Positions 12,001-14,115 of a DNA stretch of 14,115 nt are shown piece by piece (within the stretch, counting starts at the first letter, position 1; every line of letters begins with the position of its first letter). Source of the DNA: a virus (Duplodnaviria > Heunggongvirae > Uroviricota > Caudoviricetes); the IMG/VR virus record IMGVR_UViG_2713896798_000015. One strand, written 5' to 3'. The position numbers are program-made.

Positions 12001-14115
12001 CTCCTTTATTTGGTGCCAAAGTGACGCCATGAAGGCCATAATGCCACTATTGAAATCGTATGGCAATATGGCACCATGATTTTTTTTGAGAGATTTGCAA
12101 TGGCCGAAAAACAAGTAAAAGACTACGACAAGTTCAACCTCCGTTTTCCTGACGGAATGCGAGATGCTATAGCTGAACGAGCCAAACGAAACGGGCGCTC
12201 TATGAACTCAGAGATTGTTCAGATACTGGAAGATGCCTTGAATGCAGAAAATACACTCGGGGAAATAGCAGATAAAATTAACAGCGTCTCGGTTCCGCTA
12301 AATGTTGATGCGCTAGTTCAACTTCAAGCCCAGGTTATCGCCATGCAAAAAGAAATACAGGAAAAGTTCAGAGAGCAGAACGAAAAGTTGAGAGAACTAC
12401 TAAATAAAAAACCCACCTGACGGTGGGCATAATCCATTACTGCGAAAGTTTATTAATGGAAAGGAAACCGCCAAAATTAGCCACCATGCCGCGCATCTCA
12501 CACCCGCGCATGCACTTGCTGCATCTGTCCTTACGGATATCCGTGGTGGGTTGTCGAACTCATCCGCCACAGCCCCGCCCGTGTAACCACACTCATCAGA
12601 GCGGTAGGTCCACATACAGGTATTCGCCAGCATGATACGACCGGGAAACAGCGCCCCGTCCGTCTCGGTCGGTGTGGCCAGCACAAACGAGGCTGTCATG
12701 GCCGTCAGCTCTGACATCTGCTCCACCACCCAGCGGTCGCTCAGCTCCTGCTCCGGGTCCGCTTCCGGATTGCCCGCCACAAAATTCACCGCATCCAGAA
12801 AACGGGCATACACCCGGCGGCGGACCACCGTGGCCCCCACCAGACTCTGCAGGTCTTCCGCCATCCCGGTGACCAGACCGAACAGATTGGACACCGTCAG
12901 TGACGGTCTGGCACTGCTGCCCTTCCCGCTCATCTCAAAACCGCTGCCGTCAATCGGGTATGCCTGATATTGCCGCCCCTGCCAGGTGACCGGCTCCCCT
13001 TTTTCATTCAGTTCATTGCAGAAAAAATAGCGCTCACCGCCCTGCACCGTCAGGTCGATTTCCCAGAGCACCACCCGCGGTGACTGTTCTGATTTAACCG
13101 ACTCGTTCAGACTTTCTTCATGAATGTCCTGCATCAGTTCACCACCTGCTCAATCGTACAACTGAAATCACTGTACCGGACGTTATCCGTGACGCTCCAC
13201 TCCGGCATACCACCCTGACCATCCGGTTATGTTTCGGCGGTCGCCACAAAAAGGCACGGTAACCACCATGCCACGATAAAAACTCTTCCAGCCAGCGCCG
13301 GGTTGACTCATCCGTCACCCGGAACACCGCCTGAAACGTCTTCAGTTGAGGATTCAGTCCTGTGGGGCGACGCTGTTCATAACCGTCACCAAACCGCACC
13401 CTCACCACCGACGGCTTCTCACTCACCTGCATCCCTTCACGCGGGACCAGATGCAGCGTTTTTATCTCAGCCACTCAGCATTCCTCCGTCACGTCGCATG
13501 GACAACATCACCGCCTGCACCCGCTGGTCAATCAGCTGCACAAGACTGCCTGCCGCCTCCGGCCCTATCTGGCCATTAGTCCCGTCATTCTGAATGGCGA
13601 TATGGTAGACCGGGGAATACACCAGGCCCGCACTACCGTTCATACTGCCCACCGCTCGCACACCCAGCGAGCCATCCGCCGCCCGGGTCAGGGGCATAAT
13701 GGCTTCAGGACCGGCCTCCCCCATCAGCCCCCGCCCCTTTTGCAAAGGCAAAGTACGTGGGCGTATCCACAATACTGTTGCTGTACGCACTCAGGTTTGC
13801 CGAGGTATACACGCCGCCTTTTGCATTGGCCACCGCTCCGCCCAGCCAGTCACCAATGCTGCCGAGAAATCCTCCCGCACCGGACATACTGTTTGCCGCC
13901 GTCTTAATTCCGTTGACAATCGCGGCATTCATAAGAACTTTTGATATTTCCTGCAGCACTGATGAGGCCCAGCTGCGCCATTCCACTTTATTTCCGTTCA
14001 GCATCTCCGTGATGTTATTCACCATCCCTGAGATACCCTCCGTCGCAAGCTGTGCTGCCTGTGAGGCGTAATCGGACGCATTATCCACCCAGTTACTGAA
14101 TCCCTCCTGCAGCCC

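Follow-up and report, generated by a model that had tools for sequence, protein, structure and literature searches.

The frame split in the tape-measure gene H of an Escherichia coli lambdoid prophage is best explained by a consensus error in a homopolymer near the end of a contig

Here, we analyze a frame split in the tape-measure gene H of a lambdoid prophage in E. coli IH53473 and conclude that it is very probably a homopolymer consensus error at the contig end of an unpolished PacBio draft assembly. In this explanation, one extra G would have been called in a run of four, within a low-quality terminal stretch of a long-read contig; we predict GCAAAAGGGGCGGGGCTGATG as the true sequence, which would encode an intact 1080-aa tape-measure protein like WP_078313368.1. 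The DNA that we analyzed (14,115 nt; hereafter the window) is, after reverse complementation, identical (0 mismatches) to the terminal 14,115 nt of LFZH01000009.1 (L005 1-14115), a 2,141,082-nt contig of the IH53473 assembly GCA_001264175.1. The H frameshift site is 387 nt from the end of this contig. A preliminary description of the window had left two readings, an error of sequencing or assembly and a genuine mutation that inactivates the gene; the sequencing platform, the position at a contig end, three further indels, and the absence of the five-G run from all other sequences searched strongly support the first of these readings and not the second.

On the minus strand, H is translated in one frame for residues 866 to 994 and in the next frame for residues 995 to 1080, and the frame switch occurs at the GGGGG in GCAAAAGGGGCGGGGGCTGATG. 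Read from 14115, the first frame (frame A) runs to ...SNSIVDTPTYFAFAKGAGADGGGRS and a stop codon at 13705-13707, with its tail end appearing in the translation as ...TPTYFAFAKGAGADGGGRS before the stop. The following frame (frame B) reads ...GLMGEAGPEAIMPLTRAADGSLGVRAVG...RRDGGMLSG (also given as ...GLMGEAGPEAIMPLTRAADGSLGV...GMLSG) and ends with a stop at 13467. The corresponding ORFs, 13705-14088 and 13467-13790, overlap at 13705-13790, exactly the interval marked in the preliminary description. The nearest relative has an intact tape-measure protein of 1080 aa, and frame A is 100% identical to its residues 866 to 994; after residue 994, frame A continues with seven aberrant residues, ADGGGRS, and then stops. 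Frame B matches the final 86-87 residues of intact H at 100% identity. The two-frame ORF pattern is not due to chance, and the frame switch at a G/C homopolymer that had been noticed from the sequence is present, with both frames matching the intact protein. It had also been proposed that deleting one G from the run would restore a continuous product, and this is correct: with one G removed, which amounts to the +1 shift required for frame restoration, the sequence becomes ...FAFAKGAGLMGEAGPEAIMPL..., matches that of the relatives exactly, and gives a repaired frame that is 100% identical to residues 866 to 1080 of WP_078313368.1.

The assignment of these fragments to a lambda-type gpH is based on domain content and gene order. 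PF09718 (Tape_meas_lam_C) matches residues 1 to 68 of frame A (E=2.3e-17; 63 bits versus a cutoff of 23), and the gene lies between G/T and M, as seen from synteny with L001 and L004. The prophage shares the order G/T-H-M-L-K-I-J-lom-stf with lambda, and its H is of the type found in the lambdoid and Stx phages of E. coli. The deposited H differs from a lambda-type gpH in that it is split by one base instead of forming a single ORF, which we attribute to the consensus error, and in that its 5' end is missing, the gene being cut at residue 866 by the physical end of the contig at window position 14115. Pfam coverage is absent over the frame B fragment and the junction, PF09718 stopping at residue 68 of frame A; conservation across the junction is therefore shown by tblastn instead (see below). 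The coordinates of the features discussed are collected in Table 1.

Table 1. Window coordinates of the H fragments, the private homopolymer changes, the contig end, and neighboring genes
Feature	Position	Strand	Remarks
G5 run (C5 on the + strand), one base longer than in every relative; H frameshift site	13728..13732	-	C4 in L001, L002, L003
H fragment, frame A: residues 866-994, ADGGGRS, stop	13705..14115	-	PF09718; 5' end is the contig end
H fragment, frame B: residues 995-1080 (LMGEAGPEAIMPL...GMLSG), stop	13467..13727	-	100% identical to the intact protein
T-run change, T4 versus T3 in relatives; private insertion	11775..11778	.	intergenic, between antirepressor and Arc-family gene
G3 versus G4 in relatives; private deletion in gene L	12548..12550	-	C-terminus garbled and extended
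C2 versus C3 in relatives; private deletion in gene M	13202..13203	-	last ~22 residues garbled
Physical end of LFZH01000009.1	14112..14115	.	3 nt beyond the last base separating the two prophage copies of the relative; a 3,514-nt exact repeat starts
Antirepressor, P22_AR_N/C domains	10824-11747		immI-like module
Arc-family gene	11819-11992		immI-like module
Divergent Arc-family gene	12100-12420	+	immI-like module
sodC, Cu/Zn superoxide dismutase (PF00080)	8736-9263	+	opposite strand, between I and J

A search with the whole window found the same prophage in SCPM-O-B-7615 (NZ_CP144926.1; L001), integrated beside dusA and with an H gene annotated as intact (1080 aa; WP_078313368.1). Together with OkiPb01684 (NZ_AP042519.1; L002) and SCPM-O-B-9504 (L003), this strain served as a reference; all three are independent complete genomes. 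Between window positions 1657 and 14115, the window and L001 are 99.96% identical; they differ by a substitution at 14112 and by four indels, each of a single base in a homopolymer. L001 and L002 have the same run length, different from that of the window, at every one of the indel sites; so does L003 at three of them, the region around 11775 being absent from L003. At 14112, the window matches L002, L003, and L006, a sister prophage described below. Compared with the three references, the differences private to the window in 12.4 kb thus amount to four indels and zero substitutions, each of the four, including the C5 versus C4 at the H site, being a homopolymer length change of one base. The G4 form of H is present in all three references, and the lesion is not reproduced in the lineage, the nearest member having an intact H.

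Measured from the contig end, the indels are at 387, 914, 1568, and 2340 nt, and the ~10.1 kb that follow this terminal 2.34 kb are identical to the relative. In calculations made post hoc, four randomly placed indels would all be confined to the terminal 2,341 of the 12,459 aligned nt with a chance of ~1.2e-3, and the chance that four of four would fall in runs of at least 3, which hold 17% of the bases, is ~9e-4. The excess of indels over substitutions is clustered within 2,340 nt of a contig end that, in the relative, coincides with a repeat. Besides H, two of the changes alter the neighboring tail genes: gene L forms an ORF at 12400-13134 in the window, while the intact gene would extend over 12437-13134, and gene M spans 13134/13139-13474. 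The M and L frameshifts are missing from the preliminary description, in which H was the only frameshifted gene reported. The 244-aa frameshifted L product has no record on exact-sequence look-up.

IH53473 is a hybrid STEC/ETEC isolate that was sequenced only on the PacBio RS (P4/C2 chemistry, continuous long reads); after HGAP pre-assembly and correction with PacBioToCA, Celera Assembler 7.0 produced a draft of 10 contigs with gaps (PMC4551483). In the text of that paper, Quiver occurs 0 times, and polishing and short-read correction are also absent (PMC4551483). Judged by these methods, the contig derives from an indel-prone platform (PacBio RS continuous long reads) without effective polishing. 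An exact-sequence look-up of the J protein returned two assemblies only, one of them GCA_001264175.1, and revealed no further data set for IH53473. A point against an error is the high accuracy of the contig in its interior, which shows that the assembly does not contain errors along its whole length; the argument for an artefact therefore depends on the quality of the contig end.

The relative provides a reason for the contig to end where it does. SCPM-O-B-7615 has a second lambdoid prophage (L006), whose H accession and G, T, and L proteins are those of L001, and L001 25449-31894 and L006 16689-23100 form a repeat of ~6.4 kb that extends from L to the head-completion genes and contains five differences. 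The longest exact stretch in this repeat is 3,514 nt; it starts at the L001 equivalent of window position 14112 and, thus, 3 nt ahead of the contig end. We infer that IH53473 has the same inter-prophage repeat and that this repeat made the assembler end the contig at its edge. The last 2-3 kb would then rest on very few corrected reads, in which the residual errors would mainly be homopolymer miscalls of plus or minus one base. Four such miscalls probably remain in the last 2.34 kb, and the three in coding sequence would make H, M, and L look frameshifted. A rate of four errors in 2.3 kb (0.17%) is of the order expected of corrected, unpolished PacBio reads (PBcR/HGAP). The repeat accounts for the break of the contig and for its thin support, but not for the extra base itself. 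As a direct cause of the indel, a mixing of reads from the two prophage copies was considered and rejected: both copies in the relative have G4. Residual homopolymer errors in unpolished assemblies of PacBio continuous long reads are concentrated at contig ends and repeats. The H split has in common with such errors that it is a change by one base in a short homopolymer, occurs in one assembly only, and has companions unaccompanied by substitutions; it also shares with them the location in the terminal 2.3 kb, the contig's stop at a repeat, and the apparent frameshifts in conserved genes. We see no difference in kind between the two.

Searches for the five-G form elsewhere gave a consistent result. 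With a 61-nt query against 5,426 complete E. coli genomes, G5 was found in 0 of 572 matching records (1057 places); there was no match of at least 99%, and the best matches were all 60/61 with one gap. A 649-nt query was covered by 1251 E. coli and 91 phage records, and the top-listed matches each span 648 nt. The exact G5 36-mer was found 0 times in viral contigs, metagenome contigs, and species-representative genomes. The G4 35-mer is present in seven viral contigs and two metagenome contigs; the species-representative genomes have neither form, and the locus itself is absent from that collection. In 72 blocks of other assemblies, an 85-aa C-terminal H ORF (starting MGEAGPEA) is called on its own. 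We rejected these calls as recurrences of the same split: none of the nine other loci inspected has G5 at the junction, and in these loci H is broken at other places by various lesions.

Among the H loci inspected, CP026842.1 (L017) has C2 instead of C3 at ~30 nt upstream of the site, so that ACGCCCACG reads ACGCCACG, and ARWT01000101.1 (L022) has a T10 tract inserted at the site, after GGGGCCGGG. The H copy of OkiPb01684 (L002 14808-18050) is annotated as a pseudogene; at residue 891, its codon for E is replaced by an in-frame nonsense codon.

Could the split be real? According to this alternative, IH53473 would carry a genuine one-base insertion that truncates H after residue 994 and, together with the M and L frameshifts, reflects the decay of a cryptic prophage; we regard this as improbable. 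The lesion is present in the deposited sequence, IS elements are abundant in the cargo region beside the tail-fibre genes, and pseudogenization of tail genes is common in prophages, as illustrated by the nonsense codon in OkiPb01684, which falls in the part of H covered by the window, and by the 72 separate C-terminal ORF calls with their various upstream lesions. That prophage tail genes do decay in this way counts against an error. However, the OkiPb01684 codon is a substitution, unlike the indel pattern of the window. In wild-type E. coli, base substitutions are ~ten-fold more frequent than indels in mutation-accumulation studies, and the window shows the opposite pattern, with four private homopolymer indels of one base and no private substitution in 12.4 kb. 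Moreover, there is no biological reason for all four to be placed in the terminal 2.34 kb of a contig, precisely this type of error is known from the platform and pipeline used, the nearest relative is otherwise identical and has intact H, M, and L genes, and G5 was not found in any other sequence searched. A variant in which all four changes, i.e., the H, M, and L frameshifts and the T-run change, are real and arose by replication slippage, for instance during a transient mismatch-repair-deficient episode, is slightly less probable still. If all four were real, then the tail module would have been recently and specifically inactivated in an otherwise identical prophage. A truncation of H would be expected to be inactivating: in lambda, residues 818 to 842 of gpH form a three-helix coiled coil that is held in the tail-tip lumen on the gpI trimer (PMC10721106). 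A real lesion would leave a truncated H that lacks the conserved LMGEAGPEAIMPL segment and this C-terminal helix, tail assembly would probably be abolished, and H would be an ordinary prophage pseudogene.

A different possibility is that full-length H is synthesized from the split gene by a programmed +1 ribosomal frameshift or by transcriptional slippage at the G-rich stretch. Programmed frameshifting is established for G/GT, just upstream of H, in lambda-like tail operons, and G and T are annotated upstream of H in the relatives. The G/GT site and the H site are in the same operon, one gene apart; however, they are in different genes and at different positions, and while the G/GT frameshift is in the -1 direction, the H site would require +1. 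The two-frame arrangement is absent from the homologues, every close relative being one base shorter and in a single frame. In tblastn with the repaired 79-residue junction, 545 phage records matched, from Escherichia, Klebsiella, Vibrio, Pseudomonas, Stenotrophomonas, and others, and in all 40 of those listed a single alignment runs through the junction. Thus, two frames are conserved neither in the close relatives nor in the listed distant phage relatives. In addition, the indels in M and L are equally private and no recoding model accounts for them, and a five-base G run is much shorter than the transcriptional slippage tracts known. We therefore reject programmed +1 frameshifting and slippage, which we consider to have a negligible probability, on the grounds of the G4 single-frame relatives and the one-piece alignments of the phage homologues. 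The expectation that programmed frameshifting does not occur at this position was borne out by this comparison with H homologues, and a consensus error remains the best explanation for the split.

It had further been suggested that the frameshift, together with an IS66 insertion, indicates a defective prophage. This suggestion finds no support: the frameshift is probably unreal, and the IS66 element interrupts no tail gene in the window. The element is of the ISCro1 type, extends from window position 1 to ~2670, and is located downstream of the tail-fibre genes in a cargo region that, in the relative, also holds IS1, IS2, IS5, and an NleG effector gene. Judging from the sequence, neither the frameshift nor the IS element seems to give good grounds for calling the prophage defective. 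ISCro1 varies among the assemblies: in SCPM-O-B-7615 it is accompanied by a partial tandem copy of 1,013 nt (L001 14670-15682; tnpA and a truncated tnpB) that is absent from the window, and in OkiPb01684 the element (L002 1366-3981) is at the same place in the opposite orientation.

Compared with lambda, this prophage has genes inserted at two places among the tail genes. A P22 immI-like module (10824-12420), which contains an antirepressor and Arc-family genes, is located between K and L; it is absent from L006 and L003, in which K abuts L. Between I and J, sodC is a cargo gene within the tail operon and is present in all related prophages looked at. In the SCPM-O-B-7615 copy, the head-tail connector and portal genes (L001 32379-35285) are annotated as frameshifted.

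With a consensus error as the probable cause of the split, H, M, and L in GCA_001264175.1 should not count as pseudogenes in annotation. More generally, our findings are a reminder that frameshifts within a few kilobases of the contig ends of unpolished long-read drafts call for confirmation at the level of the reads, and that such confirmation matters especially for prophage genes that are repeated in one genome.
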